The notes beneath the pieces are model-generated. The model ran no database searches. It was not told the origin of the DNA and saw nothing but the letters and a program-made list of their open reading frames with translations. From positions 66,536-130,535 of the forward strand of contig JAJACI010000001.1 of assembly GCA_022601595.1 (NCBI GenBank): a stretch of 64,000 nt of DNA. Direction: 5' to 3'. Below, one piece after another: positions 6,283 through 53,595 of the stretch. This DNA is from Chlamydiia bacterium. GTDB lineage: Bacteria; Chlamydiota; Chlamydiia; Chlamydiales; 2-12-FULL-49-11. Position 1 is the first letter of the stretch; every line of letters starts with the position of its first letter. A program made the translations under genes and the position numbers.

Positions 6283-6449
6283 TTTAGGAGACTCTGATAA
6301 ACTACACCTTTTAGAATCTTTTCAGATTTTTTGAAATAAATCCGATTTTGGAGTAAGCTGCATCCCCGTAGGGATGGGGCGAAACGAAAAATAGGATGTA
6401 TCAAAAATCTGGAAGATTATAAAACTGTCCGTTTTTCAGAGTCTTCTTA
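6283..6449 (+). mobile_element. MITE-like palindromic element, subfamily A, copy A1
   Basis: Termini TTTAGGAGACTCTGATAAAC ... GTTTTTCAGAGTCTTCTTA and central hairpin CATCCC-CGTA-GGGATG. About 90% identical by eye to 10580-10746. Its right end supplies the stop of 6447..6755. Confidence 0.9.
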
Positions 6450-6755
6450 GGGGTTAGGAACCCATATGCTGTTGATAGCAACATCTTTTATAATCACTTG
6501 AGTATGGTCAGAACTTCCTGCATCAAAAAAATGCACCGTAATTCTATGAGCTACTTCTTTTCTATCGTAGCCACTAAATTCTTTTAAGATGGCATAATTT
6601 CTTTTTCCACTTGTTCGAGAAATAACTACTACATCTTCATGATGTAGGTCGCTGTATTTAACGCGTTTAAATTTAGTGTCTTTGTCTATGACTCCTAAGG
6701 TTTGTAAGAGTTTATTTTGATAGATATCTGCAGGCAATCTTATGGAAGCTGTCAT
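6447..6755 (-). CDS. Hypothetical protein (102 aa)
   Basis: ORF with a TAAGGAGACTTCC-ATG ribosome-binding context. The stop codon lies in the terminus of element A1. No recognisable family. Confidence 0.55.
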   Translation of the reverse strand: MTASIRLPADIYQNKLLQTLGVIDKDTKFKRVKYSDLHHEDVVVISRTSGKRNYAILKEFSGYDRKEVAHRITVHFFDAGSSDHTQVIIKDVAINSIWVPNP

Positions 6756-6756
6756 G

Positions 6757-6812
6757 GAAGTCTCCTTAAGGAACCTCTGAATAACTGCTGGTTTTTAAGG
6801 TAATAACTATAC
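6757..6812. repeat. Back-to-back element termini (A-type end fused to B-type arm fragment)
   Basis: GGAAGTCTCCTTAAGGAACCTCTGAATAACTGCTGGTTT matches an outward A-type end plus the first ~30 bp of the B-type arm (compare 41582-41612 and the reverse complement of 19555-19584). Confidence 0.7.
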
Positions 6813-6842
6813 ATATTCTTTGTATTGTTTTATGCTGTTTGC

Positions 6843-7253
6843 ATGGGATATCAGATAAAAATATATCTTGTGGGAAGGCGACATCCTGCGGTTTTGGCAG
6901 ATGCTATTGGCTCGTATGAAAAGCGGATAAAAGGGCACGTTTCTTTAGAATGGGTGATTCTAAAATCAGATAAGGAATTGGAGGAAAGGCTTGCTAGCAA
7001 AGAGTATTATTGCTTTGATGTGCTTGGCAAAGACTATACAAGCGAGTCTTTTTCAAAATTGCTTACATCGAAGATGCATTGGAATTTTGTAATAGGAGGT
7101 GCCTCAGGGCTTCCAAAAGAGGTGGTAAAAGGTGCGCGCGCTCTTATTAGTTTTTCCAAATTCACTTTTCCTCATGAGATAGTAAGATTATTGGTAGTGG
7201 AGCAAATTTATCGGGCTTTTGAGATAGGAAGAGGATCGCCATACCATAAGTAG
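6843..7253 (+). CDS. rlmH: 23S rRNA (pseudouridine1915-N3)-methyltransferase RlmH
   Basis: SPOUT C-terminus FVIGGASGLPKEV...FSKFTFPHEIVRLLVVEQIYRAFEIGRGSPYHK. ATG at 6843 is preferred over the TTG at 6825. Confidence 0.85.
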   Translation: MGYQIKIYLVGRRHPAVLADAIGSYEKRIKGHVSLEWVILKSDKELEERLASKEYYCFDVLGKDYTSESFSKLLTSKMHWNFVIGGASGLPKEVVKGARALISFSKFTFPHEIVRLLVVEQIYRAFEIGRGSPYHK

Positions 7254-7255
7254 AG

Positions 7256-10423: not shown

Positions 10424-10432
10424 GCAAAAAAA

Positions 10433-10528
10433 TGCCGGAGACTTCTTATAACAAAAGCTACTTGCTTAAGGCTGCTACCTTCCGGTCCTGACCTGGTTCA
10501 CAAGGCTTATTCTATAAGGTCCCCAGCA
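10433..10528 (-). ncRNA. ffs: Signal recognition particle RNA (4.5S-type)
   Basis: The minus strand reads ...GUGAACCAGGUCAGGACCGGAAGGUAGCAGCC..., near-identical to the universally conserved SRP domain IV core (ACCAGGUCAGGUCCGGAAGGAAGCAGCC in E. coli 4.5S). The 5' and 3' ends pair (GGGGACCUUAUAGA with UAUAAGAAGUCUCC). A T7 run follows on the minus strand. Ends are approximate. Confidence 0.75.
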
Positions 10529-10579: not shown

Positions 10580-10746
10580 TTAAGGAGACTCTGATAAACT
10601 ACACTTTTTAGAATCTTTTCAGATTTTTTGAAATAAATTCTATTTTGGAGAAAGCGGCATCCCTGTAGGGATGGGGCGCCACGAAAAATAGGATTTATAA
10701 GAAATCTGGGAGATTATAAAACTGTCCGTTTTTCAGAGTCTCCTAA
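10580..10746 (+). mobile_element. MITE-like palindromic element, subfamily A, copy A2
   Basis: TTAAGGAGACTCTGATAAACTACAC ... GTTTTTCAGAGTCTCCTAA with central CATCCC-TGTA-GGGATG. Its right end supplies the TAG stop of 10743..12926. Confidence 0.9.
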
Positions 10747-12926
10747 TAACGAATAGCACTTCTAGGTACAGGAGGGAATAGCTGTTTAACAAATGAGAGA
10801 ATTTTCGGATGAAAATTAGATAGAGTTTTTGCCCATGTGGGTATATCTTCCCCAAGCTCACCTGTAATATCTGGGTTTTGGTCTAGTTTTAAAACACCTG
10901 TGTCAATCAACAGTAGTTTGATAAAATCTTTTTCAGTGCATAATTTACCTCTAAGTTTTGATCTTATATCCTTTTTCCAACTCTCAAATCTCTTGCTGAA
11001 TGAAGGGGACTGCCGCACTTCGTATTGAATTCTAGCAATCATCAATTCAGGGTTAAAGAAACGGTGTGATGGAGGTGTAGCGGTTGGATCCACTATGGAA
11101 TCTATAATAGGTGGTAGTACTCCATATTTCATATAATCAAAAAGATTCATGTGTTTTATGTTCGCGTTTGGATTAAAGTGTTTATTAACATTATCTATTC
11201 TTATTGCATTCTTATTTACATGAACATCGTTAGAGAGCTCTTTCCCTAGCGCTGCCCCTATTTGGAAAGTCCCTAGATACATTGATTGCTGCTCATTGAA
11301 TACTTTAAGTAGGTAATAAATTTGGTTTTTAAGCGTATCACTTTTATTTTCAGTAAAATAGTTTATTTGGAGGGCAAGGTTCCTTATAGATTCGCTGACA
11401 CCGGTATTGCAAAAATTGCATTTTTCTATGAGTTTTGTCATACGGAAAAGAGCGTTTCTGGTTTCATCATTGTTTATATTATTTTTAATACAATCAAAAA
11501 TAAAGGTGATTTGCTTTTTTAAAACATTTACATCAATCAGCCCTCCTTGTGTAAAAGTTCCAGATTCAAGTTGATCTAGTAAGCCTTCGAATTTCAAAGT
11601 AAAATACTTTTCGTAATACTCTTTTTCCTCTTGAAAAAACTCTTTAACCTTATTTATATCTTTTATTTTAGCTATAGATTCTTGATGTATATTAAGCTGG
11701 TTGATGGCTTCTTGTTTTTTGGCTCTGAATGTAGGTCGTTGTGCTATTGGTGAATTATTTATCCATTCTTCAGTGAGACCTTTGTATCTGCTCCATTGAG
11801 CAAGCTTAACATCAGTAAGACCAATGGTTTGTTTATAGAGCTCTATTAGATGAGCGTCTTGAGATATTTCTCCATTCCATGCCCGTTTTAGCAGTTCTAT
11901 TTTTTCTATTTCTTCGCTGTTAAGGTCATCTTGACTTTGGTAGAGAGCAAGCATTCTGTTAAAATAGTCATCATTAGGTAGCTTGGTCTTAAAATTTGTT
12001 ATAAATTGTTTAAATTCAGTACGAAGTTCAGATACAGATCTAGCTTTTGTCTCTTCGTATGCGGTATAATCTTTAGGGATTGCTGCGTAGTGAGAGGTAT
12101 TAATAATTAATGGCTGACTTCGATCTTTTATAAAAGTATCAAACGACGAGTTGTCTGTATGATGTAAGAGCGTTTGGGTATCAAGGGCGTAGGGGAGATT
12201 TCCTGTTATAAGCTGCGTCCACTTCTGCGTTAGATAAGGAATATCAGAGGAGCTAAGACGGAGTGCTAGAAAGTAAATTTTTCCTAATTTACTAGAATTA
12301 TAAAATGAATTGTACATAATAGTAGTTGATATAATTGATGCAATAATAGACATGGCATTATTAAATACTTTTGTTGTTTTATCAGGAAGAAGTGTTGTGT
12401 TATTTCTAATAATACGAATACTCATTAAACAGACTCCTAATGCAGGTGCAAAGGTTAACCCAGCATTAAAAAAAGAGATATAAACAGCAAGGGAGGCCAC
12501 TTTGCCTGCTGTATCTAAAATAGAATCCATATGTTTTGTAACCGGTCTGATAAAGTCTAGAGTTGGTTTTATGGGTTCTAATATGGGTTTTAATTTAGGT
12601 AGAAATTTAAGACCCATCTTTACATACGCCTCTTTATTGATTTTACCCAATATATAAAGAGCTGTTGGAATACTTTGAAAAAGTAGTCTAGCACCTGTGA
12701 AACGGATAGGACGTTTGGTTGTGATTAGGTCAAAAAGTAACCCTTGTGTAAAAAAAAAGTATGTTACACAGGTAATAGGGTTCCCCCCCGTTTCTTGTGC
12801 CTCTTGTTCATTTCTAGAGAAATATAGACCTGACGCATAGAGAGCTGGACGATTGTTTGTTTGAACAGAATTTTTTAACGCTTTCCAATCAAACTCTTTT
12901 AGATAATTATTTACTCCAGCAATCAT
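10743..12926 (-). CDS. Hypothetical large protein (727 aa), hydrophobic N-terminal third, soluble helical remainder
   Basis: Long ORF with no family recognised. Contains G7 and T9 homopolymers near the 5' end. The stop lies in the element A2 terminus. Confidence 0.7.
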   Translation of the reverse strand: MIAGVNNYLKEFDWKALKNSVQTNNRPALYASGLYFSRNEQEAQETGGNPITCVTYFFFTQGLLFDLITTKRPIRFTGARLLFQSIPTALYILGKINKEAYVKMGLKFLPKLKPILEPIKPTLDFIRPVTKHMDSILDTAGKVASLAVYISFFNAGLTFAPALGVCLMSIRIIRNNTTLLPDKTTKVFNNAMSIIASIISTTIMYNSFYNSSKLGKIYFLALRLSSSDIPYLTQKWTQLITGNLPYALDTQTLLHHTDNSSFDTFIKDRSQPLIINTSHYAAIPKDYTAYEETKARSVSELRTEFKQFITNFKTKLPNDDYFNRMLALYQSQDDLNSEEIEKIELLKRAWNGEISQDAHLIELYKQTIGLTDVKLAQWSRYKGLTEEWINNSPIAQRPTFRAKKQEAINQLNIHQESIAKIKDINKVKEFFQEEKEYYEKYFTLKFEGLLDQLESGTFTQGGLIDVNVLKKQITFIFDCIKNNINNDETRNALFRMTKLIEKCNFCNTGVSESIRNLALQINYFTENKSDTLKNQIYYLLKVFNEQQSMYLGTFQIGAALGKELSNDVHVNKNAIRIDNVNKHFNPNANIKHMNLFDYMKYGVLPPIIDSIVDPTATPPSHRFFNPELMIARIQYEVRQSPSFSKRFESWKKDIRSKLRGKLCTEKDFIKLLLIDTGVLKLDQNPDITGELGEDIPTWAKTLSNFHPKILSFVKQLFPPVPRSAIRY

Positions 12927-18390: not shown

Positions 18391-18451
18391 TAAAGATGAC
18401 TCTCATAAACTCATGCTTTTAAAAGAGTCACCTTTGGCGACTCTGATAAGC
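18391..18451. repeat. Mini/degenerate B-type element remnant upstream of uvrA
   Basis: TAAAGATGACTCTCATAAACTCATGC...AAAAGAGTCACCTTT forms the GACTCT/AGAGTC inverted pair of the B-type terminus (compare 62831-62895). It is followed by GCGACTCTGATAAGC. Confidence 0.45.
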
Positions 18452-18554
18452 AAGCTCGTATAAAGAGTTCAAAAAATTATTTAAAAAGCTCTGGTGATAA
18501 ATTTTTTGTTAACGTATAATGTGTGTTTGATAAACAATAAAAAGAGGTGCAGCT

Positions 18555-19008: not shown

Positions 19009-19431
19009 ATGGTTATGCAGTTTATTCATTTAGAAGATCGATATGTAAACTATGAAAATAAAGATGAATTAGAAGTTTACATTCGCCAAGGCTTATCTCT
19101 TGAAATAGATATAAATCAGGTGCGCAAGATTGTGACAAGTTTACAACACATCAAGTTTTCCAGAGCGAGGTTTTCCTCTATAATAAAGAGAAGGCGCCAG
19201 AGTATTAGAGTTCGACAAAGCGTCACTTGTCTAGGCATAAAAAAATCAGAAAGAAATCTGATGAGAAATTTAGATGATAGAATTCATTGTATAGAGACTT
19301 TGATAAAGTCGCTGAATAAAGCAATAGATAAATTACGATGTAGATCCTTAAGGCATCGAACGAGACTAGAGAAAAAAAAGGGAAGCAAGCTAATGATAAC
19401 AAAAGTTTTTGTCACCTTTAGGAACCTCTGA
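19009..19431 (+). CDS. Hypothetical protein, C-module of the local paralogue family (split from 18555..19007, or frameshifted)
   Basis: The ATG at 19009 is 1 nt after the upstream TAA. QFIHLEDRYVNYENKDELEVYI...ITKVFVTFRNL parallels FVHLDNKNALKQEV...VAKVFVQYREKHL in 20210..20995. The stop TGA lies inside the element B1 terminus. Weak SD. Confidence 0.45.
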   Translation: MVMQFIHLEDRYVNYENKDELEVYIRQGLSLEIDINQVRKIVTSLQHIKFSRARFSSIIKRRRQSIRVRQSVTCLGIKKSERNLMRNLDDRIHCIETLIKSLNKAIDKLRCRSLRHRTRLEKKKGSKLMITKVFVTFRNL

Positions 19432-19584
19432 AAAACTCATGCTGAATAATTAGTCCAGATTTCTTATAAATGAGATTTTTCGCGGCGGTCCAGCCCTACA
19501 GGGCTGAGCCTTACTCCAAAAACCAATTTATTCGAGCAATCTGAAAAAATTATTGAAACCAGCAGTTATTCAGAGTCTCCTTTA
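19418..19584 (+). mobile_element. MITE-like palindromic element, subfamily B, copy B1
   Basis: TTAGGAACCTCTGAAAAACTCATGCTGAATAATTAGTCCAG ... ACCAGCAGTTATTCAGAGTCTCCTTTA with central CAGCCC-TACA-GGGCTG. It is the reverse complement of 41582-41747. Confidence 0.9.
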
Positions 19585-22220: not shown

Positions 22221-23993
22221 ATGAGAAAGACCAAGGTAATATGCACTATTGGCCCAGCGGTATCCTCTAAAAAGGGGCTTAAGTCTTTGATAGACGCTGG
22301 CATGAATGTATGCAGACTAAACTTTAGTCATGGCTCTTATGAAGATCATGGGAAAGTTATTGATCAGATAAAAGATCTTCGAAAAGACCTCGGCCGCCCT
22401 CTTGCTATCCTATTGGATACAAAGGGTCCGGAGGTAAGAACCCAAAATAGAGTTCCCCAGGAGCTGGTGGATGGCGCTTTATACCCGCTGCATGGAGATC
22501 CTGATAAAGAGGGGATCTCTATTGCTCCAAAATCTGCTTTAGATGACTTAAAGCAAGGGGATACCATCTTATTTGATGATGGCCATTTGAAAGGAAAGAT
22601 CTTAGGCTCTACATCTTCTGGTTTTTCTGTAAAGGTAATGGTTCCTGGTATTTTGAAACCCAATAAAAGCGTTAACTTTCCTGGCGTGAAACTGAATATC
22701 CCTTTTCTTACTGATAAAGATAAAGAGGATATCTTATATGGGATAAAACAAGGGGTGGAAGCAATTGCTGCATCATTTACTATGTCTGCAGAGCACATTT
22801 TAAGCATCAAAGAGCTCCTTCGAAAAGAAAATGCCGCACATATCCTTGTCTTTTCAAAGATAGAGAGTTTAGAGGGAATACACCATTTTGATGAAATACT
22901 AGAAGTCTCTGATGGTATTATGGTTGCTCGTGGTGACCTTGCTGTGGAATGCTCTTTTGCGCAGGTGCCTCCTATGCAGAAGATGATGATAGATAAATGT
23001 AATAAAGAGGGGAAACCTGTAATTGTGGCCACAGAGATGCTCGAGTCGATGGTTAGTAGCAAAAGCCCCACACGGGCTGAGGTTTCAGATGTTGCAAATA
23101 GCGTTTTTGATGGCACCTCTTGCACCATGTTATCTGGTGAAACGGCCATGGGAAAACATCCTGCTCATACCGTATCTATTATGTGTGAGATTATCAAAGA
23201 GGCTGAAAAAGCTACTTTTGATGACCGCGTTGCTCCAGAGCATATTCGCTCTTTATCTTCAAAAGTAGCCTTTTCAGCAGTGCAGATAGCAAATGATATT
23301 GAAGCAGGGGCTATCCTTGCTTTTACAAAATCTGGACGTACCGCAAGGCGAATATCTTCTTTAAGACCTGACATGAAAGCAATTGTAATCACCCCAGAAG
23401 AAAGTACGTACCACCAGACAGCATTTTTATTTGGTATCATAGCCATGCGCGAGCCTAAGACTTCTGACCATAAAGATATTATGCCGTGTATGTGCAGCAT
23501 GCTGCAGAAAAAATATGTTGCCTATGGTGATTTGATAGTGATCACCCAGGGAGTTCCTTTTGGCGTGAGCTTTACCACTAATACGGTGCAGATAGAAAGT
23601 ATTGGCAATGCAATCATCCGAGGAGCAAAGAAAAATAGAAGCCCTAAAAATATGGTAGAGGGAGAAGTTTTTTACTACTTTCCACGTACTAAAAAAGATG
23701 CCCTCCATCATAAAGGAAAGATTGCTATTTTAAGGGAATTTTTTGAGGATACCGGAGATATGCTCACAGATGTAAAAGGGATCATCCTCCAAAATGCTCA
23801 TTACGATAAACATTCAGAAGAAGCCCTTTTTGCCTTTTCTGAAAAATACCAAATCCCATATATAAAACGGGGAGAAGGTGCTATGTCTCTTTTAAAAGAG
23901 GGAGATCATGTACGTATGGAGCCTGCTCTAGGGTTGGTATTTAAAGGCGATGCACTCACCAAACAAGAGATGCTCAAAGCCCCCGGCTTATAA
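22221..23993 (+). CDS. pyk: Pyruvate kinase with C-terminal PEP-utiliser-like extension (590 aa)
   Basis: RKTKVICTIGPA, NVCRLNFSHG, LLDTKGPEVR, MVARGDLAVE and ATEMLESM motifs. An extra ~110-aa C-terminal domain is present. Confidence 0.95.
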   Translation: MRKTKVICTIGPAVSSKKGLKSLIDAGMNVCRLNFSHGSYEDHGKVIDQIKDLRKDLGRPLAILLDTKGPEVRTQNRVPQELVDGALYPLHGDPDKEGISIAPKSALDDLKQGDTILFDDGHLKGKILGSTSSGFSVKVMVPGILKPNKSVNFPGVKLNIPFLTDKDKEDILYGIKQGVEAIAASFTMSAEHILSIKELLRKENAAHILVFSKIESLEGIHHFDEILEVSDGIMVARGDLAVECSFAQVPPMQKMMIDKCNKEGKPVIVATEMLESMVSSKSPTRAEVSDVANSVFDGTSCTMLSGETAMGKHPAHTVSIMCEIIKEAEKATFDDRVAPEHIRSLSSKVAFSAVQIANDIEAGAILAFTKSGRTARRISSLRPDMKAIVITPEESTYHQTAFLFGIIAMREPKTSDHKDIMPCMCSMLQKKYVAYGDLIVITQGVPFGVSFTTNTVQIESIGNAIIRGAKKNRSPKNMVEGEVFYYFPRTKKDALHHKGKIAILREFFEDTGDMLTDVKGIILQNAHYDKHSEEALFAFSEKYQIPYIKRGEGAMSLLKEGDHVRMEPALGLVFKGDALTKQEMLKAPGL

Positions 23994-24043
23994 AAAAGAC
24001 TCTGAAGAAATTCTAAAAAGTGTAGTTTATCAGAGTCTCCTAA
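23994..24043. repeat. Mini A-type element (terminal hairpin only) between convergent pyk and the ankyrin gene
   Basis: AAAAAGACTCTGAAGAAATTCTAAAAAGTGTAGTTTATCAGAGTCTCCTAA. Its last ~40 bp equal the end of A10 (57884-57923). GACTCTGA/TCAGAGTC form a hairpin. Confidence 0.8.
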
Positions 24044-24056
24044 TGTCACTATCGTT

Positions 24057-24902
24057 TTAAAAACTTTGTAAGAAAAGCTTTCTAGCTGTTTCTCCATTTT
24101 TATTTGCATGATCAGGATCGGCTTCTGGAATCTCTAAAAGTGTACTTAGAATTTTTTGACTGTTTACACAAATGTTATATTCTTGGTTATTGATATAACT
24201 AGTACGGGTCTTTTTTACTGCATGAATAAGAGCGGTGTTCCCATCAATATCTGCATGATTGATAAATCCTAAAAAAGAACCAGCTTGCAGTTTGCTAGCC
24301 TCCAAAAGGCTTTCTACAGTATGCAGATCGTGTTCTACGATAGCCTCTATTAGCGCTGTCCTACCATATTTATTAGCGGCATTGATATTTGCTCCTGCTT
24401 GCAAAAGACTTTGTATAATGGCACGTCTCTTTTTCCAGAGAGATCTAGACCTTTGCTGCGCTTGGAGGCTAAACTCTGCACTAGCTCGAGCGTTTTCTAC
24501 AGCTAAAATAAGAAGGGTGTTTTTGTTTTCATCGGTATGATTGATATCAGCACCTCCTCTTATAAGCTCGTCTACGACCTCTAAAGCACCTTCTTTGATT
24601 GCTATTTCAAAAGCCTTACTGGTGTTTTGTTTTACCTTTAAAAGCTCTCGCACTAAATCTGGGCGATTTTGCCTTGCCGCGTATATTAGAGGTGTAGTTT
24701 GCACCTTCCAGTCACAATCACCATCAGTATGAATGTATGGAATAGGGGTAAGTACATCAGCTCCGAGCTGTAAAAGTTCTTGCACCTGCTCAGAATTATT
24801 TTTTTTTATAGCTGAAATAAAAGCGTTATCTAATTTTACATTACCATCAAGCTGACTCATTCCAATTGCTAAGAAGAATAAAAATATGTTTTGTCTTTTC
24901 AT
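24057..24902 (-). CDS. Ankyrin-repeat protein with N-terminal signal-like sequence
   Basis: Repeated ankyrin consensus (GADINHTDENKNTLLILAV, GANINAANKYGRTALIEAI, DIDGNTALIHAV) and a hydrophobic N-terminus MKRQNIFLFFLAIGM. Confidence 0.85.
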   Translation of the reverse strand: MKRQNIFLFFLAIGMSQLDGNVKLDNAFISAIKKNNSEQVQELLQLGADVLTPIPYIHTDGDCDWKVQTTPLIYAARQNRPDLVRELLKVKQNTSKAFEIAIKEGALEVVDELIRGGADINHTDENKNTLLILAVENARASAEFSLQAQQRSRSLWKKRRAIIQSLLQAGANINAANKYGRTALIEAIVEHDLHTVESLLEASKLQAGSFLGFINHADIDGNTALIHAVKKTRTSYINNQEYNICVNSQKILSTLLEIPEADPDHANKNGETARKLFLQSF

Positions 24903-24966
24903 AGGGCTCCAAATTAAAAAAAATGTAAATTAAATATGTAACTTACTACTTATTGTCACGAAATTT

Positions 24967-24995
24967 ATTATATCTTTCCCATTAATTTACTTCAA
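24967..24995 (-). promoter_or_regulatory. Sigma70-type promoter (TTGAAG-17-TATAAT) upstream of the ankyrin gene, copy 1 of a duplicated module
   Basis: The minus strand reads TTGAAG TAAATTAATGGGAAAGA TATAAT. The same module recurs at 26413-26441. Confidence 0.5.
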
Positions 24996-25009
24996 GAAGA
25001 ACTGATCAT

Positions 25010-25068
25010 TTAAGAAGACTCTGAAAAACGGACAGTTTCAGAATCCCATAGATTTTTTATAGTTGATT
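25010..25068. repeat. A-type element arm fragment (inward-facing)
   Basis: TTAAGAAGACTCTGAAAAACGGACAGTTTCAGAATCCCATAGATTTTTTATAG aligns with the first ~55 bp of A10 (57756-57812). Confidence 0.8.
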
Positions 25069-25122
25069 GTATACAAGAAAAATGCTATCCTTTTGTTAAG
25101 AAATAATTAAGTAGAGGAAAGT

Positions 25123-25767
25123 ATGACATATGGCATAGGAAGTTTACCTTCGATTAATCCACTGCATAAAGCGAAGCTAAACTATGCAATGGCCGGAGTG
25201 GGAGCTTCGGTTCTTGCTGTTTTATCACCATTTGAATCTGCAAAGATCATTGGGGCAACTGTTTTAACAGGAGTAGGCTATGGGATCGCAAATGATATGT
25301 TTGCATGTAGAGACTGTATAGAATATTTTACCGTAGGTCATCATTACGACGGGGAAAAATTAAGAGGTCGCCTTTTATTTACATTGGATCCAAATTGGAA
25401 TGCTTTAGCATGGGGAGCCTTCGCAACCTGGCATGTGTGTACTATTGCGGGTATTGTGTTAGCATTTATTTCAAGGACTCCTTTTAGAGGTCTGAAATCT
25501 AAGATTACAGCAAAAACGCTTGCGCCGAAATTGGTAGTGGGTGCTTTATTGTTAATAGTAAAGTCTCATTTTGCCGCAAGAGCTGCGCAAAAAGCTTATG
25601 AAAATAAAGGGAAGAGGTATTTTTTCTGGGGTGTGCCTGAAGAGTTCCAATCTAGATGGAATGCATGTCACGTAAGAAATCTTACTGGATATTTAGGTTT
25701 AGCGGTAGGTGGCGTAGCGCTTTCAGTTGCTATTATTGCATCCAGAGCAGGCCTCTATAAATTATAA
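25123..25767 (+). CDS. Hypothetical polytopic membrane protein (214 aa)
   Basis: GAGGAAA SD and 4-5 hydrophobic segments. The last codons and the stop lie in an element arm. No family recognised. Confidence 0.65.
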   Translation: MTYGIGSLPSINPLHKAKLNYAMAGVGASVLAVLSPFESAKIIGATVLTGVGYGIANDMFACRDCIEYFTVGHHYDGEKLRGRLLFTLDPNWNALAWGAFATWHVCTIAGIVLAFISRTPFRGLKSKITAKTLAPKLVVGALLLIVKSHFAARAAQKAYENKGKRYFFWGVPEEFQSRWNACHVRNLTGYLGLAVGGVALSVAIIASRAGLYKL

Positions 25768-25797
25768 AACTGCTCGTTTTTCAGAGTCTCCTTAATA
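25761..25797. repeat. A-type element arm fragment (right end)
   Basis: ATTATAAAACTGCTCGTTTTTCAGAGTCTCCTTAA. It supplies stops for both convergent genes, 25123..25767 and 25781..26377. Confidence 0.8.
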
Positions 25798-26377
25798 AAC
25801 CGGCTAAAAATGCAGACTTATAACAACCGAAAAGTTGCTTAGCCCTTTCTATTATCCATCGTGCATTCCTCTTATTCCCTTGTGCCCATCTGTTGCTGAT
25901 AAGTCTAAGAGCCTCAACCCGATTTTCTCCAAATGACATCCTTGTAGCTGCGTCAAATGCTCCTTCTAAATCATCTCTTTTTGTCTTTTCTTTTACAACC
26001 AGCAGTAAAATAGTATCTTGAGCATCGGGATCGTTTTTTATTTCAGCAGCAGTTTCTTCGACTAGAGCAAACATACCAACTTGTATTTGAGCTATTGCAA
26101 TAGTCGTTAATTTACTATTAGCATCTAAAATGAAGAGCGGATTAACAAATGTTTTTGCATACTTGAATATCTCACAAGTATTGCAAGGATCAGTAGCGGA
26201 GTAGGCAATAGCAACGGCCACCAAAGTAGCTATTCTTTGATTAACATCATCAAAAGAATCAACTTTCATTAGTATTTGAGTAAAGCCGCATTGATCAGAT
26301 GCTTTCCCTTGATAATCTCCTAGTGGTCTTGTTGTGTTAAGCCTGTCATCTGTTGCGCTATTTGTTATTGATACCAT
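25781..26377 (-). CDS. Hypothetical protein (198 aa)
   Basis: ORF whose C-terminal LLRRL-stop is encoded by TTATTAAGGAGACTCTGA, i.e. the element terminus. No family recognised. Confidence 0.6.
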   Translation of the reverse strand: MVSITNSATDDRLNTTRPLGDYQGKASDQCGFTQILMKVDSFDDVNQRIATLVAVAIAYSATDPCNTCEIFKYAKTFVNPLFILDANSKLTTIAIAQIQVGMFALVEETAAEIKNDPDAQDTILLLVVKEKTKRDDLEGAFDAATRMSFGENRVEALRLISNRWAQGNKRNARWIIERAKQLFGCYKSAFLAGLLRRL

Positions 26378-26412
26378 ATGAAAAAATTCTGTTATTTATT
26401 ATAAAGAACTTT

Positions 26413-26441
26413 ATTATATCTTTCCCGTTTGTTTACTTCAA
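26413..26441 (-). promoter_or_regulatory. Sigma70-type promoter (TTGAAG-17-TATAAT), copy 2 of the duplicated module, upstream of 25781..26377
   Basis: The minus strand reads TTGAAG TAAACAAACGGGAAAGA TATAAT. 33 of 37 bp are identical to 24964-25000. Confidence 0.5.
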
Positions 26442-26466
26442 CAAGAGTTTATCAAAGGTTCCTAAA
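26441..26466. repeat. Degenerate element terminus abutting the rsmE stop
   Basis: AGTTTATCAAAGGTTCCTAAAG resembles GTTTATCAAGGTCTCCTTAG, the right end of A6. The rsmE stop (CTA at 26462-26464) lies inside it. Confidence 0.5.
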
Positions 26467-32566: not shown

Positions 32567-32571
32567 ATTAC

Positions 32572-32757: not shown

Positions 32758-33025
32758 AGTTCTCTTTATGATCCGCCGCCATATACATGGGATGATCTAG
32801 GCGATGACGCAACAAAGTGCCCTGGAGAAGGATTTAAATGGGGGGGGTAGTGGGGCTCCAGAAACTGGAAATGGTAATTGGGTGAAGGGTAGAAGAAAAG
32901 AATTTGACCTTCTTCATCCTGATTTTGATAATCCCCAGCATGACCCGCATTGGGACTATGAGAGCTCAGAATTTCCTGCAGGAGTTAGAATATATCCAGA
33001 TGGATGGGAGCATAAGGTACCATGA
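32758..33025 (+). pseudogene. Start-less, frameshifted fragment resembling the C-terminal toxin domain of a polymorphic toxin
   Basis: Two frames join across the G8 tract (32840-32847) to read SSLYDPPPYTWDDLGDDATKCPGEGFKWGG|SGAPETGNGNWVKGRRKEFDLLHPDFDNPQHDPHWDYESSEFPAGVRIYPDGWEHKVP. There is no start codon in the upstream frame. The tracked ORF 32804..33025 is the downstream part. Confidence 0.5.
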
Positions 33026-33483
33026 TACGAGAATTAGTTAAGTATAAATTAGACAAAGAAAAAATCCTGGAATATTTTCGTTGGAATTTAAAAGATTTAA
33101 ATATTTTGTCCAAAGAGGTTGTTGAAAATACTCCTTTTGACAAAGGAGAGTTTTACACGTTAATGCCAAAAGGCTTGTCGGAGGAGCAGGTGCATAGTTT
33201 TCGAGGGGGATGTGTAAAAAGTCACGGTATTCAGGAAGGAGTGTGTGATTTTATTTACAAAAAACAGAAATCAAATTCTGCTTTATTTTGTATATTTGAC
33301 GCTTTGTATGAAGAGTATGATTCAGATTTTGGTATAGGAGATGATCTTTTTTCAAAAATATCAGTGCATAATAATTGCAAGGAAATATATTTAGCTGTAC
33401 TAGATGGTGGGTTTTATGTGAGTTTATTACAAAAATGCTTTCAAATGACGGACTGTATTTGGCATTCACAAAGGAGACCTTGA
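33022..33483 (+). CDS. Hypothetical protein (153 aa), candidate immunity protein of the preceding toxin-like fragment
   Basis: ATGA start/stop overlap with the toxin-like ORF. The last four codons plus the stop (QRRP-TGA) are encoded by the terminus of element A6. No family recognised. Confidence 0.5.
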   Translation: MIRELVKYKLDKEKILEYFRWNLKDLNILSKEVVENTPFDKGEFYTLMPKGLSEEQVHSFRGGCVKSHGIQEGVCDFIYKKQKSNSALFCIFDALYEEYDSDFGIGDDLFSKISVHNNCKEIYLAVLDGGFYVSLLQKCFQMTDCIWHSQRRP

Positions 33484-33635
33484 TAAACGACACTTTTTAG
33501 AATTTCTTCAGATTTTTTGAAAGGTATTCTATTTTGGAGTAAGCGGCATCCCTGTCGGGATGGGGCGAAACGAAAAATAGAATGGATAAGAAATCTGGGA
33601 GATTATAAAACTGTCCTTTTATCAAGGTCTCCTTA
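33469..33635 (+). mobile_element. MITE-like palindromic element, subfamily A, copy A6
   Basis: CAAAGGAGACCTTGATAAACGACAC ... CTTTTATCAAGGTCTCCTTAG. Both termini carry the same CT-to-CC / AG-to-GG change, which preserves complementarity. The centre is CATCCC-TGTC-GGGATG. Confidence 0.9.
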
Positions 33636-33788
33636 GATGGTGATGAGTGATATCCCGTTTGAGAGAAATAAGGATAAGAGTATATCTACGCAGCAATTAG
33701 AGGATATAGCGAAAAAAGCACAGCTTGTTGTGCTTAGGGCCTATGACCAAGAGGGGTATGTTTTTTGGCAAAGAAATAGTGCGTTGAG

Positions 33789-33828
33789 TACTTAGTAATT
33801 GTGATAAATTGGAAAAAACTTTAGTATA
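33789..33828 (+). repeat. Direct repeat copy 2 (duplicated aroC 3' end) immediately upstream of cydA
   Basis: TACTTAGTAATTGTGATAAATTGGAAAAAACTTTAGTATA. It would encode LLSNCDKLEKTLV-stop, matching the aroC C-terminus LLSNCDKLEKTLT-stop. Confidence 0.9.
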
Positions 33829-33858
33829 AAATAATATTATACAATAAGGGCTTATCAT

Positions 33859-44437: not shown

Positions 44438-45769
44438 ATGAATAAAGGAATAATCTCTGAAAAAGAGCTACTTAAGGTGAAAAAATGTTTATCCAAAGAC
44501 CTCTCTTTTAAATTGGCTTGTAATGCGGTAACAAGAGGAGATTTGCAGGATGTTGCCATGAATTGGGATCGTTTTTCTTTGATAGATCATACCTTTTCTC
44601 ATGTAGTAACACCTGAGCTTTCTGCAACAAGTCAGCATCATAGCGGTCGTTGTTGGATATTTTCTGCCTTAAATTTAATCCGCATTCCTTTTGCAAAAAA
44701 GTATAAACTGGAAGATTTTGAGTTCTCACAAAGTTATTTATTTTTCTTTGACAAGCTTGAAAGGACCAATTATTTCTTAGAAAATATATTAAGCACCTCA
44801 GACATGCCTGTAGATGGACGTCTTGTTTCTCATTTACTTAAAGATCCTGTTCAAGATGGCGGACAGTGGGATATGTTTGTTTCTCTTATCCAAAAATATG
44901 GTATTGTGCCAAAATCTATTTTCCCCGATAGCAAGGCCTCTTTAAATTCTCGATCGATCAACTATATTCTCAGCTATAAGTTAAGAGAGTGGGCAAAAAC
45001 CCTACGTGATTTAAAAGAAAAAAAAGCCTCTGATAAAACGCTTTCTGAAAAAAAAGATTTAATGATGAATGAAGCATTCAGGATAATCTCCATCCATATT
45101 GGGCATCCTCCTGAAAAATTTGATTGGGAGTATGTGGATAAAGATAAAAAATTTCACGCCTGCAGGAACCTTACACCAAAGACATTTTTCAAAAAGCATG
45201 TGAATTTCCCGCTTGATGAAATGGTTAGCCTTGTAAATAGCCCTAGAAAATCTACTCCTTATGGAAAGTCTTATACAGTGAAGTATTTGGGAAATGTAAT
45301 AGAGGGGCAAATAGTTCGTTATTTAAATGTAGAAACACATGTGATGAAAAAAGCTGCTATTGCGGCTATTAAAGATAACTCCCCTGTTTGGATAGGGTGT
45401 GATGTTGGTAAGTTTTTTCATAGAGGCCTCGGTGTAATGGATGCAGAACTGTACGAATACAAGCATTTATATGATACAGAATTTGATTTGGATAAAGGAG
45501 GAAGGCTTGATTATGGGGAGGCGCAGATAGCTCATGCAATGCTTTTTACGGGGGTGAATCTTGTAAATGGCAAGCCTACAAAGTGGCGCGTTGAAAATAG
45601 TTGGGGTGAAAAAAATGGTGACAAAGGATATTATATTATGACCGACAAATGGTTTGATGAATTCATGTTTTTGATCACTGTTCATAAAAAGTACCTTACC
45701 AAGAAGCTTCAGGATGAATATAAGGCTAAACCTCAGGTTGTTCCACCGTGGGATCCTTTGGGAGATTAG
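44438..45769 (+). CDS. pepC: Aminopeptidase C / bleomycin hydrolase family cysteine peptidase (C1B), copy 1
   Basis: The QHHSGRCWIFSALN catalytic Cys motif, HAMLFTGV (His) and ENSWG. Confidence 0.85.
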   Translation: MNKGIISEKELLKVKKCLSKDLSFKLACNAVTRGDLQDVAMNWDRFSLIDHTFSHVVTPELSATSQHHSGRCWIFSALNLIRIPFAKKYKLEDFEFSQSYLFFFDKLERTNYFLENILSTSDMPVDGRLVSHLLKDPVQDGGQWDMFVSLIQKYGIVPKSIFPDSKASLNSRSINYILSYKLREWAKTLRDLKEKKASDKTLSEKKDLMMNEAFRIISIHIGHPPEKFDWEYVDKDKKFHACRNLTPKTFFKKHVNFPLDEMVSLVNSPRKSTPYGKSYTVKYLGNVIEGQIVRYLNVETHVMKKAAIAAIKDNSPVWIGCDVGKFFHRGLGVMDAELYEYKHLYDTEFDLDKGGRLDYGEAQIAHAMLFTGVNLVNGKPTKWRVENSWGEKNGDKGYYIMTDKWFDEFMFLITVHKKYLTKKLQDEYKAKPQVVPPWDPLGD

Positions 45770-45854
45770 GTGTGTTTTAAGAAGAAAAAACTTTATCGTT
45801 AACGAAAAAAATAGTAAGGTAAAGGATGGTTATTTAATACAAAAGGATAGATAT

Positions 45855-47195
45855 ATGAGCAAAGGGAAAATTTCTGAGAAAGAGTTGGTTAAGATGAAAA
45901 ACAGTTTGGTAAAGGATCCTTCCTTTCGTTTAGCGCGTAATGCGGTAACAAGAGGAGATTTGCAAGATGTTGCTATGAATTGGGATCGTTTTGCTTTGCT
46001 TGATCATACCTTTTCAGAGATGGTATCACCAGAGCTTGCTGCAACCAGTCAGCATCAAAGTGGACGTTGTTGGCTTTTTGCTGCGATGAATTTAATGCGT
46101 ATCCCTTTTGCACGTAAGTACAAGTTAGAAAAGTTTGAGTTCTCACAAAGTTATTTATTTTTCTTTGACAAGTTGGAGAAAGCCAATTACTTTTTGGAGA
46201 ATATATTAAAAACAACGGATGAAGCATTTGATGGTCGTCTAGTATCTCATCTGCTCACCGATCCCCTTTCAGATGGCGGACAGTGGGATATGCTTGTCAA
46301 TATAATCAATAAATATGGTGTAGTGCCAAAATCCATTTTCCCAGATAGTAAAGCATCTTTAAACTCTCGTTCCATCAACTACATCTTAACTTTAAAATTA
46401 AGAGAATGGGCAAAGACTCTACGTGATTTAAAGGAGAAAAAAGCCTCTGATAAAAAGCTTTCGGAAACCAAAGATCTGATGATGAACGAGGCGTATAGAA
46501 TTATGGTCACCCATTTTGGGCAGCCTCCTGAAAAGTTTGATTGGGAATATGTGGATAAAAATAAAAAATTCCATGCACATAGAAATTTAACACCAAAGAC
46601 ATTTTTCAAAAAGCATGTGAATTTCCCGCTTGATGAGATGGTCTGCCTGGTCGATAGCCCAAGGAAATCCACCCCTTATAACAAAGCTTATACCGTGAAG
46701 TATCTTGGTAATGTTGTTGAGGGACAGGCTGTTCGTTATTTAAATGTAAAAATTGATGTGATGAAAAAGGCTGCTATTGCATCTATTAAAGATAACACCC
46801 CTGTGTGGTTTGGTTGTGATGTGGGCAAGTTTTTCCATAGAGATATTGGGGTGATGGATACAGAATTTTATGAATATGAGGATTTATATAACACCCGTTT
46901 TGAGCTGGATAAAGCTGGAAGGATGAACTTTGGTGAAAGTCAGATGACTCATGCGATGCTTTTTACTGGGGTGAACCTTGTAAACGGAAAGCCTACAAGG
47001 TGGCGTGTGGAAAATAGCTGGGGGAAAAAGAGCGGTGATAAGGGATATTTTATCATGACAGACAAATGGTTTGATGAGTTTATGTTTGAAATCGCTATCC
47101 ATAAAAAGTACCTTACTAAAAAGATTTGTGATGAATATAAAACAAAACCACAAGCGCTAGAACCTTGGGATCCTTTAGGCGCATTAGCTTATTGA
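45855..47195 (+). CDS. pepC: Aminopeptidase C / bleomycin hydrolase family cysteine peptidase (C1B), copy 2
   Basis: Colinear paralogue of copy 1 (QHQSGRCWLFAAMN, HAMLFTGV, ENSWG). Homology begins at MSKGKISEKEL (45855), so the tracked upstream extension from 45714 is rejected. Confidence 0.85.
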   Translation: MSKGKISEKELVKMKNSLVKDPSFRLARNAVTRGDLQDVAMNWDRFALLDHTFSEMVSPELAATSQHQSGRCWLFAAMNLMRIPFARKYKLEKFEFSQSYLFFFDKLEKANYFLENILKTTDEAFDGRLVSHLLTDPLSDGGQWDMLVNIINKYGVVPKSIFPDSKASLNSRSINYILTLKLREWAKTLRDLKEKKASDKKLSETKDLMMNEAYRIMVTHFGQPPEKFDWEYVDKNKKFHAHRNLTPKTFFKKHVNFPLDEMVCLVDSPRKSTPYNKAYTVKYLGNVVEGQAVRYLNVKIDVMKKAAIASIKDNTPVWFGCDVGKFFHRDIGVMDTEFYEYEDLYNTRFELDKAGRMNFGESQMTHAMLFTGVNLVNGKPTRWRVENSWGKKSGDKGYFIMTDKWFDEFMFEIAIHKKYLTKKICDEYKTKPQALEPWDPLGALAY

Positions 47196-50122: not shown

Positions 50123-50276
50123 CCCTCCTTTAGCTTCATCACTGACTATACCTGGATTTTAGCTCCGCAGCAAGAAAATTATTTATAAAGTTATACCCTG
50201 CTAACCCTCAGTAGCTTACCTTTTACCTTTTCTTAATATAAAGAATATGTTAAAATGTACTTCGAAAGAGGGTGCA

Positions 50277-50855: not shown

Positions 50856-51038
50856 TTAGCAGTTATATAATTTATATACGTTATTATCCTTTACTTATAA
50901 AACGCATGATGGTATAATAATCATATTAGTACTCCTCTTTAGAGGAGTGCTAGGGGGGATATGTTTTAGCCCTTTATGTGTCCCCCCATTTTTTTATTTC
51001 ACCCCCACTCACTCAATTATACAATAGAATCACCTCTC

Positions 51039-51063
51039 GGTTTGTTTATCAGAGTCTTCTTAA
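51039..51063. repeat. A-type element right-end fragment
   Basis: GGTTTGTTTATCAGAGTCTTCTTAA. Confidence 0.6.
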
Positions 51064-51087
51064 TTATTAGAAGCAAATTACTTTCGG

Positions 51088-51116
51088 TTGTAAAATAAAG
51101 TTTATTATGTTATAAT
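51088..51116 (+). promoter_or_regulatory. Sigma70-type promoter (TTGTAA-17-TATAAT) upstream of 51144..52391
   Basis: TTGTAA AATAAAGTTTATTATGT TATAAT, ~28 nt before the ATG. Confidence 0.45.
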
Positions 51117-51143
51117 ATTACTTTAATAACAAACGAGGTTCTT

Positions 51144-52391
51144 ATGCCAACCATATCACACTCTACAAGTAGCAGCAGTATCAATACAGTTAGCTCGGAC
51201 AGCGACAGAGCTTATCGCCCGCTTGGTCGTCATAGAAGAAAAAGCAGTCCATCACCTACAATAGAGGTACAAAAACCAACCTCAACAACTAAATCCATTA
51301 CTAAAGTAGCGCTTTCTGCCGCTCTATCGAATGCTGATAAAAAAGTACATTTAAATGAAAAAATAGAGATCCAAAAAGCAAAAATCCGCAAACTAGAAAA
51401 AAGATTAGCAAGGTATAAAAGTAGGCCGGAAAAATCCGACAAGCTATCTAAACTAGAGCAAAGAATTCAAAAAACCCATGTTAAGGTTGCAGCTCATGAA
51501 CAAACTCTTTCAAAACTTAACGCGACCATAGAGCAACGCATAGAAAAAGGTCTACCTGCAATTGCTGATATTCCGGTAGTGCCTTTAGAGGAAGAGGTCG
51601 TTAAAAAAGAGAAATCTATTTATAGTACCGTGAGGTTTTTTACAGAATTTAAAGACCAAACTCCTCTGATGCAAGTGATTCAAGTAATCTTCTCTGTGGC
51701 AATTTTAGCGGTACGTCTTCTAGTAGATGGTTTAGTTTTTATTACCAATACTTATGTAGATGGAGTTTTGGAAGGTAAGATAAGAAATGGAACACTAACA
51801 AAACTGGTTGTTAAGACTGGAGTGGATACCCTTTCTGACCCTGAACTAGTACAAACAATTATTGATACAGGCGAAAAACTTATAGAATCCTTGGGAGATA
51901 AAGCCTCTGTAGTGATTGTTGCATTACTTAGAAATAAAGCAACTCTCAGCGCTATTGAAGATGCTCTTTCTAGATTGATCAAAAATCCAGATATAGAACA
52001 AGGTATTGCGGGTCTTATTGGCTCTGAAAAAATCAAAACTGCAGTAAGAGGGTTTATCCAAGATCAAGGAGAAACGCTGACTGGTGTAGCCAAGCGCGCC
52101 CTTACAGACAAAGAACTAGAGGCTCTTATTATATGTTTTCTTCGTAAGCTTCTTGGTGATTCTGCAACAGGCATGGCGATAAGAGTTGCTGATAACGTAA
52201 CATTAGGAGTGGGTGGAAAGCTTGTACAAGGGGCAGGAGCGGTTAAAGATGCGGCTGGATCAGCAGCAAGCAGGCTTCGATCAGGAGCAGGCGCGATTCG
52301 ATCAACCGCCACGCAGTTTGTTAGAAATAGGTTGGGACTCATAAGCCCGCCATCAGAGACCGCTACATCTCGTCCAAGCGGAGAGGCTTAA
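51144..52391 (+). CDS. Hypothetical protein (415 aa): Ser-rich disordered N-terminus, coiled coil, hydrophobic segment; effector/Inc-like
   Basis: MPTISHSTSSSSINTVSSDSD..., Lys-rich heptads (KIRKLEKRLARYK...), the hydrophobic LMQVIQVIFSVAILAVRLLVDGLVFI and a Gly/Ala-rich tail. Confidence 0.65.
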   Translation: MPTISHSTSSSSINTVSSDSDRAYRPLGRHRRKSSPSPTIEVQKPTSTTKSITKVALSAALSNADKKVHLNEKIEIQKAKIRKLEKRLARYKSRPEKSDKLSKLEQRIQKTHVKVAAHEQTLSKLNATIEQRIEKGLPAIADIPVVPLEEEVVKKEKSIYSTVRFFTEFKDQTPLMQVIQVIFSVAILAVRLLVDGLVFITNTYVDGVLEGKIRNGTLTKLVVKTGVDTLSDPELVQTIIDTGEKLIESLGDKASVVIVALLRNKATLSAIEDALSRLIKNPDIEQGIAGLIGSEKIKTAVRGFIQDQGETLTGVAKRALTDKELEALIICFLRKLLGDSATGMAIRVADNVTLGVGGKLVQGAGAVKDAAGSAASRLRSGAGAIRSTATQFVRNRLGLISPPSETATSRPSGEA

Positions 52392-52393
52392 TA

Positions 52394-53431
52394 ATGAATA
52401 AAGTTGATCAATTAGTAGGACGCTCTGTAGGTATTAATATTGAAGAAAAGAAGCCTGCTAAAAAACATAGCACTACACTCATGCATTTAATCGGGGAAAT
52501 TCGGAATAAAGAGAATTCTACCGCAAGAAAGGTTGGTGAGAGTGTCGTTTTAGTTCTTTATTTTTTGAGCGGTCTTTTTTTAGCAGAAGCCCTTGGCTGT
52601 CTAGGAAATTGGATGTGGAGTGAGATCAAAAGAGGTCTCTCAAACCATAAAAGAACAGCTGAATTAAAAAATATCCTTATAAATGATGTCAAAACTAAAG
52701 CTACAAAAGCAATCCGCCCTTTAGCTTACGATATTCTTAACAAGCTTATGAGCAGACCTAAAGTGGTAGAGACCATTGATTATGTTACATCCCTTGGTGT
52801 GGCCACAGGAACAGGTGCCCTGAAAGACGTGCTCAATGGAAGGGTGTTTTGTGACGCTAAAAAGGTAGCTATTGATTCGGTTATGGGCAACTTAGGAGAG
52901 ACTGGAAATACAGTTTTAAAAGACTTCAACACCGTGTTTGGAATAGCAGAGAAACCCGCGGCTACAACGCCTCCGGCTGCAGATAAAGCGAAGCCTGAAG
53001 CAAAGAATCCGTCTGTTGAAAAAGTAAAAAAAATCATTTTTGATGAGCTTGAGACACTTGTTATGCAACCATTTTATACGATACTTGGTAACGCTTCTGA
53101 TGCGGTTAAGGCGGCTTTTTTGGGAACATCGGAAAAAGAGGAGATCGCTCCTATAAAACCTACCGCTACTGCTAAAGTTAAGACTCCAGAGGAAGACAAC
53201 ACTGCTGCATTAGAGTCTCAAGGTGCGCAAATGGTAAGTTGGTTGAAAGCGCTTGTTAAAGAAACACCTGGAAGTGATGCTCCAAAACAAGGTCCTGTTG
53301 TTACTAAAGTAGTACCGACACCCACAACTGGAGCAATACCTGAAATAAATGCAATAAAGGACAAATTTCTTGCAAATTTAAAGAAACAGGCTCCATGGCA
53401 TGTGCGATATTTTTTAGGGCAACTCTATTAA
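52394..53431 (+). CDS. Hypothetical protein (345 aa) with one hydrophobic hairpin-like segment and a Pro/Ala/Lys-rich region
   Basis: GGAGAGG SD, with the start 2 nt after the upstream stop. VVLVLYFLSGLFLAEALGCLGNWMW. The stop TAA is the first TAA of element A9. Confidence 0.65.
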   Translation: MNKVDQLVGRSVGINIEEKKPAKKHSTTLMHLIGEIRNKENSTARKVGESVVLVLYFLSGLFLAEALGCLGNWMWSEIKRGLSNHKRTAELKNILINDVKTKATKAIRPLAYDILNKLMSRPKVVETIDYVTSLGVATGTGALKDVLNGRVFCDAKKVAIDSVMGNLGETGNTVLKDFNTVFGIAEKPAATTPPAADKAKPEAKNPSVEKVKKIIFDELETLVMQPFYTILGNASDAVKAAFLGTSEKEEIAPIKPTATAKVKTPEEDNTAALESQGAQMVSWLKALVKETPGSDAPKQGPVVTKVVPTPTTGAIPEINAIKDKFLANLKKQAPWHVRYFLGQLY

Positions 53432-53595
53432 GGAGACTCTGATAAACGGACAGTTTTATAATCTCCCAGATTTCTTATCAATCCTATTTTTCGTGGCGCC
53501 CCATCCCTACAGGGATGCCGCTTACTCCAAAATAAAATTCATTTCAAAAAATCTGAAAAGATTCTAAAAGGTGTAGTTTATCAGAGTCTCCTTAA
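53428..53595 (-). mobile_element. MITE-like palindromic element, subfamily A, copy A9
   Basis: TTAAGGAGACTCTGATAAACGGACAG ... GTGTAGTTTATCAGAGTCTCCTTAA with centre CATCCC-TACA-GGGATG. Confidence 0.9.

Follow-up and report, generated by a model that had tools for sequence, protein, structure and literature searches.

A TTAA-flanked miniature transposable element family enriched at gene 3' ends in an environmental chlamydia

We analyzed a 64,000-nucleotide stretch of a Chlamydiia bacterium genome (positions 66,536 to 130,535 of contig JAJACI010000001.1, GenBank assembly GCA_022601595.1; termed the window hereafter, all coordinates being counted from its first nucleotide), in which a short inverted repeat recurs at the ends of protein-coding genes. 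The repeat is a non-autonomous DNA transposon, a miniature inverted-repeat transposable element (MITE), and constitutes a new family in environmental chlamydiae. Short, dispersed copies of nearly uniform size carry inverted repeats at both ends, mostly lie between duplicated TTAA targets, are absent from several corresponding sites of related genomes and have no transposase gene of their own. Their enrichment at gene 3' ends is real, though not absolute. We consider it probable (about three chances in four) that a TTAA target, combined with tolerance of the resulting insertions, makes stop codons neutral landing sites and explains the clustering of copies at gene ends.

A near-palindromic element and its target site

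With up to three mismatches allowed, the 20-nt terminus TTAAGGAGACTCTGATAAAC has 16 matches in the window, where chance would give 0.01. A profile built from the best copies and searched with nhmmer recovered eight full elements of 167–168 bp each, in which terminal inverted repeats of 20–26 nt starting with GGAGACTCTGAWAAAC are conserved at both ends of every copy. Every element also matches the profile on the reverse strand, and the whole element is therefore near-palindromic. In its consensus, each of the six frames contains stop codons, leaving no room for a transposase gene. Two subfamilies are present, the copies of subfamily 1 being 90–96% alike. The full copies, all located with nhmmer, are the following.

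6283..6450, minus strand: full copy (E = 1e-56) overlapping an open reading frame (ORF) by 4 nt; its right end contains the TAA stop of gene 6447..6755, and the copy is 65 nt upstream of where lgt starts
10580..10747, minus strand: full copy with the stop of gene 10743..12926 on one side and the promoter of the signal recognition particle (SRP) RNA gene on the other
19417..19584, plus strand: diverged copy of subfamily 2, flanked by TTTA/TTTA
33469..33636, minus strand: copy with an identical TC-to-CT change in both inverted repeats
36421..36588, plus strand: full copy flanked by TTAA/TTAA, the right-hand TTAA being the nadK stop
41582..41748, minus strand: copy of subfamily 2 whose right end contains the TAA stop of gene 41745..42206
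53428..53595, plus strand: full copy flanked by TTAA/TTAA, whose left end contains the TAA stop of gene 52394..53431
57756..57923, plus strand: full copy flanked by TTAA/TTAA and without stop-codon contact, 86 nt downstream of a tRNA gene and beyond the terminator of that tRNA

A position matrix of the terminal 26 nt was used to detect extra ends and placed them at 6766, 18391, 24044, 25010, 25795, 26466, 51063 and 62831/62894. Further copies occur beyond the window, both in the flanking DNA and in related species. The element corresponds to no curated RNA family, the only Rfam matches at gathering score in the window being one tRNA and the SRP RNA. When a genome collection was scanned with a 17-nt terminus pattern, the matches listed were mostly due to chance and the only real copy among them lay in L010, a Chlamydiia metagenome-assembled genome (MAG). 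A 23-nt pattern matched three loci in metagenome contigs, none of which is a genuine copy, and no match for the element was obtained in viral contigs or plasmids. A literature search with the terminus string returned unrelated primer sequences only, and further literature searches yielded no account of this element family nor of any chlamydial MITE. To our knowledge, MITEs have hardly been described in chlamydiae.

Flanks were read for 13 full copies (12 aligned copies and L077:1117-1283). Eight are bordered by TTAA/TTAA and one by TTTA/TTTA, and no extended motif is found outside the TTAA. Most flanks are also compatible with YTAR (TTAA, with some TTAG or CTAA), the TTTA/TTTA pair being an exception. 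Since TA is the center of TTAA, most junctions are compatible with duplication of either 2 bp (TA), as in MITEs derived from IS630/Tc1-mariner elements (RUP, Correia, ERIC and Nezha), or 4 bp, as in those of the IS5 group. The TTTA/TTTA flanks of copy 19417 and the invariance of the outer T and A appear to favor a 4-bp duplication.

Relatives were reached through orthologous proteins and comprise a sister species of about 85% nucleotide identity (JGI samples 3300060835 and 3300060682) as well as more distant ones. At nadK, the sister locus L061 reads GGC TTC CAT TAA ACATGC, with a single TTAA and no element, and the window reads CAT TAA [GGAGAC...GTCTCC] TTAA AAGAAG. The site is empty in L061, L062, L077 and L078; L077 and L078 have T-TAA at this position and L062 has C-TAA. 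The NadK C-terminus is ...GWKGFH in all closest orthologues. Similarly, the regions orthologous to gene 41745 end in ILYIV* (L061) and ILYLA* (L077) with no element at the stop, at the same aligned position as ILYLT* in the window. For gene 10743, the site is empty in L076 and the orthologue P0124 is three residues shorter. Element-free orthologues thus keep the stop position, which shows that the TAA is the gene's own stop within a duplicated TTAA target. Both nadK and gene 41745 have a stop of this origin, as does gene 10743 to within three residues. The initial annotation of the window, which was made from the sequence alone, had raised the possibility that the element targets TTAA or TAA sites and regenerates them. 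The TTAA on both sides of the element, the single TTAA at the L061 nadK stop and the conserved end of NadK all support that proposal, and the comparison with element-free orthologues, which it had suggested for the affected proteins, found native C-termini kept in NadK and the product of gene 41745, and kept within three residues in that of gene 10743.

The host, assigned from NadK and the genes around it, is an uncultured environmental member of the Chlamydiia, and the same species is represented at 99.6–100% identity in public metagenome assemblies and a MAG (GCA_022601415.1, GCA_022599525.1, GCA_022599615.1 and ENA DHAR22-1). All element copies spanned by the contigs of these assemblies are present there, and many short-read contigs terminate inside an element copy. 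The sister species has its own diverged copies, 73–79% identical to those of the window, one of which is orthologous to a decayed remnant at 18391. The family also occupies different sites in related species (L075, L076 and L077), and its presence in the clade is not recent. Sister-species sequence covers three subfamily 1 sites (6283, 10580 and 36421), all of them empty there, so that subfamily 1 expanded after the split of the two species.

Stop codons within the termini and enrichment at gene ends

At seven of the eight full copies, the stop codon of a flanking ORF falls inside a terminus, and the contacts are of three kinds. Genes 6447..6755, nadK, 41745..42206 and 52394..53431 stop at the TAA contained in the adjoining TTAA. 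In gene 10743..12926, it is a TAG made of the TA of the target and the first G of the element. Finally, genes 19009..19431, 33022..33483 and 25781..26377 stop at the TGA of TTA-AGG-AGA-CTC-TGA, 15 nt into the element, the last of them taking its TGA from the terminus at 25795 of a 786-bp unit described below. The initial annotation had listed ten genes with stops in element termini, and these eight are as it described them. Its ninth case, rsmE, ends in a degenerate solo terminus. This placement is plausible: although the matrix score of 17.8 is no better than that of the best shuffles, 28 of the first 40 nt are identical to the left end of copy 19417, and the window RsmE is one residue shorter than in the relative L062. 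The tenth case is of another nature, since gene 25123..25767 is internal to the 786-bp unit and its stop, about 29 nt before the far end, does not close an incoming frame.

Translation of the consensus confirmed the earlier statement that the terminus closes all three incoming frames, and the proteins end 0–46 codons into the element with every frame closed. The three element-encoded tails that had been predicted were also found to be correct, namely FRNL for 19009..19431, QRRP for 33022..33483 and LLRRL for 25781..26377 (four-residue tail LRRL). When the element was excised in silico from the three genes of the TGA type, their ORFs extended by only 4, 5 and 12 codons (12 for 19009..19431), which means that these insertions struck the last few codons and that four-residue tails stand in for just 4–12 native residues. 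It is thus for these three genes that the element supplies the stop, as had been claimed for all ten. The expression is misleading for the four TAA genes because their stop belongs to the duplicated target, and in gene 10743..12926 the element contributes the G only, making TAG where the native stop was TAA. The only seriously truncated case may be gene 52394..53431. Its single orthologue, the distant P0122 (53% identity), is longer by about 68 residues at the end, so that the element may have shortened the window gene. The missing C-terminus was not found when the P0122 tail was searched by tblastn against all fetched DNA. Exact-protein look-ups of 61253..62383, 52394..53431 and 51144..52391 gave no match, which strain differences or another called start may explain.

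In order to quantify the bias, we counted the TTAA sites lying outside element interiors in the window. There are 484, of which 390 are coding, 86 intergenic and 8 stop-containing. Occupancy reached 5 of 11 for stop-codon TTAAs and 1 of 78 for intergenic ones (Fisher p = 6e-5). Under a tolerated-site null, in which all intergenic, stop-containing and last-12-codon sites were allowed, the location of seven of the eight window copies at 3' boundaries had p = 3e-5 for TTAA sites and 3e-4 for YTAR sites. When the sites of the window, its flanks and the relatives are pooled, gene 3' boundaries account for about 10 of 17 (p = 5e-5 to 1.4e-3), and the others are in promoter regions, behind a tRNA gene or within genes. 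The 18 kb on either side of the window (L068 and L071) added two full copies, both bordered by perfect TTAA repeats and located in divergent promoter regions; solo termini at 6766, 18391 and 51063 are near gene starts; and copies of the relatives lie upstream of uvrA (L075), within a 185-codon ORF (L076) and 44 nt past a stop (L077). The "ten of ten" at 3' boundaries that the initial annotation reported was therefore an ascertainment effect, because only termini touching a stop had been listed, and it is contradicted by the tRNA-side copy, the solo ends near starts and the promoter copies.

Explanations for the bias towards gene ends

The explanation we favor combines target choice with tolerance. 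A transposase encoded elsewhere would move the element into TTAA, occasionally into TTTA or TTAG, and duplicate the target. Whatever its orientation, an insertion into the T-TAA of a stop would alter neither the gene's own stop nor the protein; the stop would survive because TTAA reads TAA on both strands and flanks the element on both sides after insertion. An insertion a few codons before the stop would be rescued by the TGA at repeat positions 13-15, giving a four-residue tail, and the third frame would be closed by a TAG or TAA 10–17 codons into the element. Insertions elsewhere in genes would be purged, and many of those between genes, for instance in promoters and 5' leaders, would probably be costly as well. 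With such insertions lost to selection, the surviving copies would accumulate at gene 3' boundaries. The excess over intergenic TTAAs could reflect either this added cost in promoters and leaders or a real transposase preference for gene ends.

Several observations weigh against this explanation. Neither a transposase nor a full-length insertion sequence with matching inverted repeats was found in the window or the fetched loci, so that we infer both the mobilization of the element and its family assignment. The flanking repeats are imperfect in four of the 13 full copies, and if TTAA is the preferred site, duplications of TA and of 4 bp would look alike. The sample is small, amounting to about 17 insertion sites from 82 kb of one species and fragments of its relatives. 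Finally, a pure tolerated-sites null fails on the stop-codon excess, and either target preference or extra selection is thus needed. The earlier suggestion that only insertions at such sites are tolerated therefore stands in part: tolerance probably contributes, and it is insufficient alone given the 5 of 11 stop-codon TTAAs and 1 of 78 intergenic TTAAs that are occupied.

The same excess could be produced by active homing, in which the transposase or a host factor prefers a TTAA where a unit of translation or transcription ends, so that stop codons would be a safe haven and not the result of survivorship. Stop-codon TTAAs are occupied roughly ten times more often than intergenic ones, and the intergenic regions that host copies have 1–10 other TTAA and 2–11 YTAR sites left unused. 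Subfamily 1 copies are still 90–96% alike and the sites checked are empty in a relative of 85% identity, which limits the time available for selection. In addition, the inverted repeat opens with TAA followed by a Shine-Dalgarno-like AAGGAG, with back-up stops in the other two frames. Homing is nevertheless unlikely in our opinion. Five full copies are off any stop (two in divergent promoters, one upstream of uvrA in a relative, one by a tRNA gene and one 44 nt past a stop), two copies are within genes (DUF2992 and the 185-residue ORF in L076), the flanks have no shared motif outside TTAA, and we know of no DDE-type transposon that senses stop codons. We also considered that the pattern might be an annotation artefact, stop-rich termini ending any chance frame so that the "genes" concerned would be spurious. 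No Pfam domain was detected in seven of the ten listed ORFs, and genes 52394..53431 and 10743..12926 had two hits each in a search of 5.8 billion proteins. However, nadK and rsmE are bona fide genes, genes 10743, 41745 and 52394 have orthologues in other species, and identical ORFs are called in independent public assemblies. Moreover, long ORFs would not be expected to reach intergenic copies, yet seven of the eight full copies are reached. An artefact is thus very hard to reconcile with the data.

The elements could also act at the RNA level. A copy transcribed in either direction folds into one long hairpin across all 168 nt, with the stop codon at the base of the stem. The folding energy is -71.4 kcal/mol (z = -8.8) for one subfamily and -67.4 kcal/mol (z = -9.7) for the other. 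Eight base pairs are altered on both sides, including the central hairpin (CATCCC/GGGATG versus CAGCCC/GGGCTG) and the inverted repeats of copy 33469. These paired changes fit a pairing constraint, and they are equally expected from matched transposase-binding ends and a fold-back origin. 3'-end RNA roles have been proposed for the Correia/NEMIS elements of Neisseria and the ERIC elements of Yersinia, and the initial annotation had likewise suggested a terminator or an mRNA-stabilizing hairpin. By analogy, the copies at gene ends might be exapted 3'-end RNA hairpins that stabilize, terminate or mark for processing the upstream mRNA, a proposal that the very stable hairpins, the eight doubly changed base pairs and the fixation of copies in all assemblies of the species would support. 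The strong hairpin is real, but no U-tract follows it, and a consensus scan of two regions detected no site resembling an intrinsic terminator or a sigma-70 promoter inside the elements. Orientation relative to the upstream gene is 5 versus 2, which is not significant; copies are found in 5' regions too; those at 18391, 23988-24044 and 62831-62894 are decaying; and a palindrome with matched inverted repeats is expected of a MITE with no RNA role. We accordingly regard an exapted 3'-end function as rather improbable.

If the combination of TTAA target and tolerance is correct, the target and end sequence of the transposon make stop codons a neutral landing place in a gene-dense genome and let such elements re-tail proteins by a few residues. 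Should the stop-codon bias instead be true targeting, it would be a novel type of safe-site strategy among DNA transposons. In either case, the family breaks short-read assemblies and may seed rearrangements or chimeric joins, and annotation and comparative work on environmental chlamydiae should take it into account.

Partial copies, neighboring features and known systems

In addition to the full copies, the window contains partial copies, solo ends and one larger unit.

6766..6791, plus strand: solo terminus of subfamily 2 (position matrix), 11 nt from the start of gene 6447..6755
18391..18460, strand not assigned: decayed remnant (position matrix) upstream of a uvrA-like gene; a relative carries a full copy at the same site (L075:2369-2536)
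23988..24044, minus strand: truncated copy comprising the last 57 nt of the element (nhmmer and position matrix); its inner break adjoins the pyruvate kinase stop and its outer end is about 10 nt past the stop of gene 24057..24902
25010..25795, strand not assigned: 786-bp unit with two inverted termini and TTAA/TTAA flanks (nhmmer and position matrix)
26441..26466, minus strand: degenerate solo terminus with the rsmE TAG stop (matrix score 17.8), running into a promoter-like repeat
51038..51063, minus strand: solo terminus (position matrix), 81 nt upstream of the start of gene 51144..52391
62831..62894, strand not assigned: 64-bp internally deleted mini-copy with two termini (position matrix), 23 nt downstream of the stop of gene 62380..62808

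The 786-bp unit carries a 214-codon ORF (25123..25767) and has the appearance of a MITE relative with a passenger, moved in one piece. The ORF product has no Pfam domain, is membrane-like by composition and matched 353 cluster representatives at E<1e-3. With these properties and a sizeable uncharacterized family, it is unlikely to be a transposase. The unit lies in a 2.4-kb segment (23994-26461) that also contains ORF 24057..24902, possibly an ankyrin-repeat gene, and ORF 25781..26377. The relative L062 lacks this segment, its rsmE and pyruvate kinase genes being convergent and overlapping. A 62-nt repeat (24947-25008 and 26393-26454) places a TTGAAG-17-TATAAT promoter ahead of both minus-strand genes, and on the rsmE side it is continuous with the element terminus. 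A second segment, of 1.26 kb, contains ORFs 32804..33025 and 33022..33483 and the MITE at 33469-33636. It is bracketed by 49-nt direct repeats (32526-32574 and 33789-33837) that are 88% identical, and in L062, L077 and L078 aroC is next to cydA without it.

Gene 6447..6755 begins TTAAGGAGACTTCCATG right after the solo terminus (window 6753-6791), its Shine-Dalgarno sequence being the junction of TTAA and GGAGAC, and the element end may therefore have supplied the ribosome-binding site. The SRP RNA gene (10432-10526, minus strand) has a promoter TTGAAT-17-TATGAT at 10563-10535 that begins 17 nt from the end of copy 10580-10747, which is wedged exactly between this promoter and the stop of the upstream gene. 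The element at 53428 has another left flank in MAG contig JAJACR010000001.1 (L068:907-1492), namely an adh_short gene and the N-part of DUF2992. In this contig the element interrupts a DUF2992 pseudogene, the N-part on one side being continued by the C-part on the other. The window counterpart (53428-53871) has gene 52394..53431 on the left instead. The two versions differ at five positions in the first 26 nt of the element and are identical thereafter, as would result either from recombination between copies or from a chimeric assembly at the repeat.

Other repeats and duplications are present in the region. Gene 42270..43379 has a 21-nt tandem repeat of about six units at 42994-43161 that encodes a heptapeptide repeat, and its product measures 355, 369 or 348 residues across the assemblies of the species, so the repeat number may vary. 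The tandem paralogues 40758..41342 and 41745..42206 are 34% identical with a MITE between them, and the tandem peptidase C1_2 genes 44438..45769 and 45714..47195 are 79% identical. Past the right end of the window, in L070:5254-7561, the gene starting just past 63100 is present in two tandem copies (384 and 383 residues); it is single-copy in L068 and L069.

The chlamydial element was compared with several known systems. Insertion sequences of the IS5 group duplicate a 4-bp YTAR target, and the eukaryotic piggyBac transposons target TTAA. The YTAR-like flanks and a repeat start GGA..., as in IS5, suggest an IS5-type element as a candidate parent. Copy 19417, with its TTTA/TTTA flanks, departs from YTAR, and no transposase was found in the loci searched. 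As with the Rickettsia palindromic elements, a palindromic repeat of an obligate intracellular bacterium contacts protein-coding genes. Those elements are in frame and translated within the host protein, whereas the chlamydial element ends the protein, with stops in every frame. Compared to an intrinsic terminator, in which a U-tract follows a GC-rich stem, or a REP sequence, a palindrome of 20–40 nt, its hairpin spans 168 nt and contained no terminator-like site in the two regions scanned.

In functional terms, the QMITE1 and QMITE2 families of Coxiella burnetii come closest, followed by the enterobacterial ERIC/RU elements. The QMITEs are likewise MITEs of an intracellular bacterium that form stable hairpins, and many copies overlap the 3' ends of functional genes. 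They overlap ubiB, ruvB, recN and others by 1–50 bp (Wachter et al. 2018, PMC5896051) and sometimes give the stop codon or C-terminal residues, EnhC being extended in this way (PMC5896051). Unlike those of the chlamydial element, the QMITE direct repeats are variable (2–3 nt or 7–11 nt) and not a fixed TTAA, no stop-regenerating target has been described for them, and QMITE1 carries promoters and encodes small basic peptides. ERIC/RU-1, RU-2, YPAL and Correia/NEMIS elements are also palindromic MITEs, of 100–170 bp, with a TA-centered target duplication. In enterobacteria, RU/ERIC insertions duplicate TA and become fused to C-termini (PMC2759123), and ERIC, RU, YPAL and Correia elements form long hairpins co-transcribed with their neighbors, in some cases with fusion to gene 3' ends (PMC2229807, PMC2759123). 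These elements have other inverted repeats, some have open frames and insert in frame, and Correia elements carry promoters and IHF sites; the chlamydial element, in contrast, has no promoter detected inside it, a TTAA flank and all of its frames closed.

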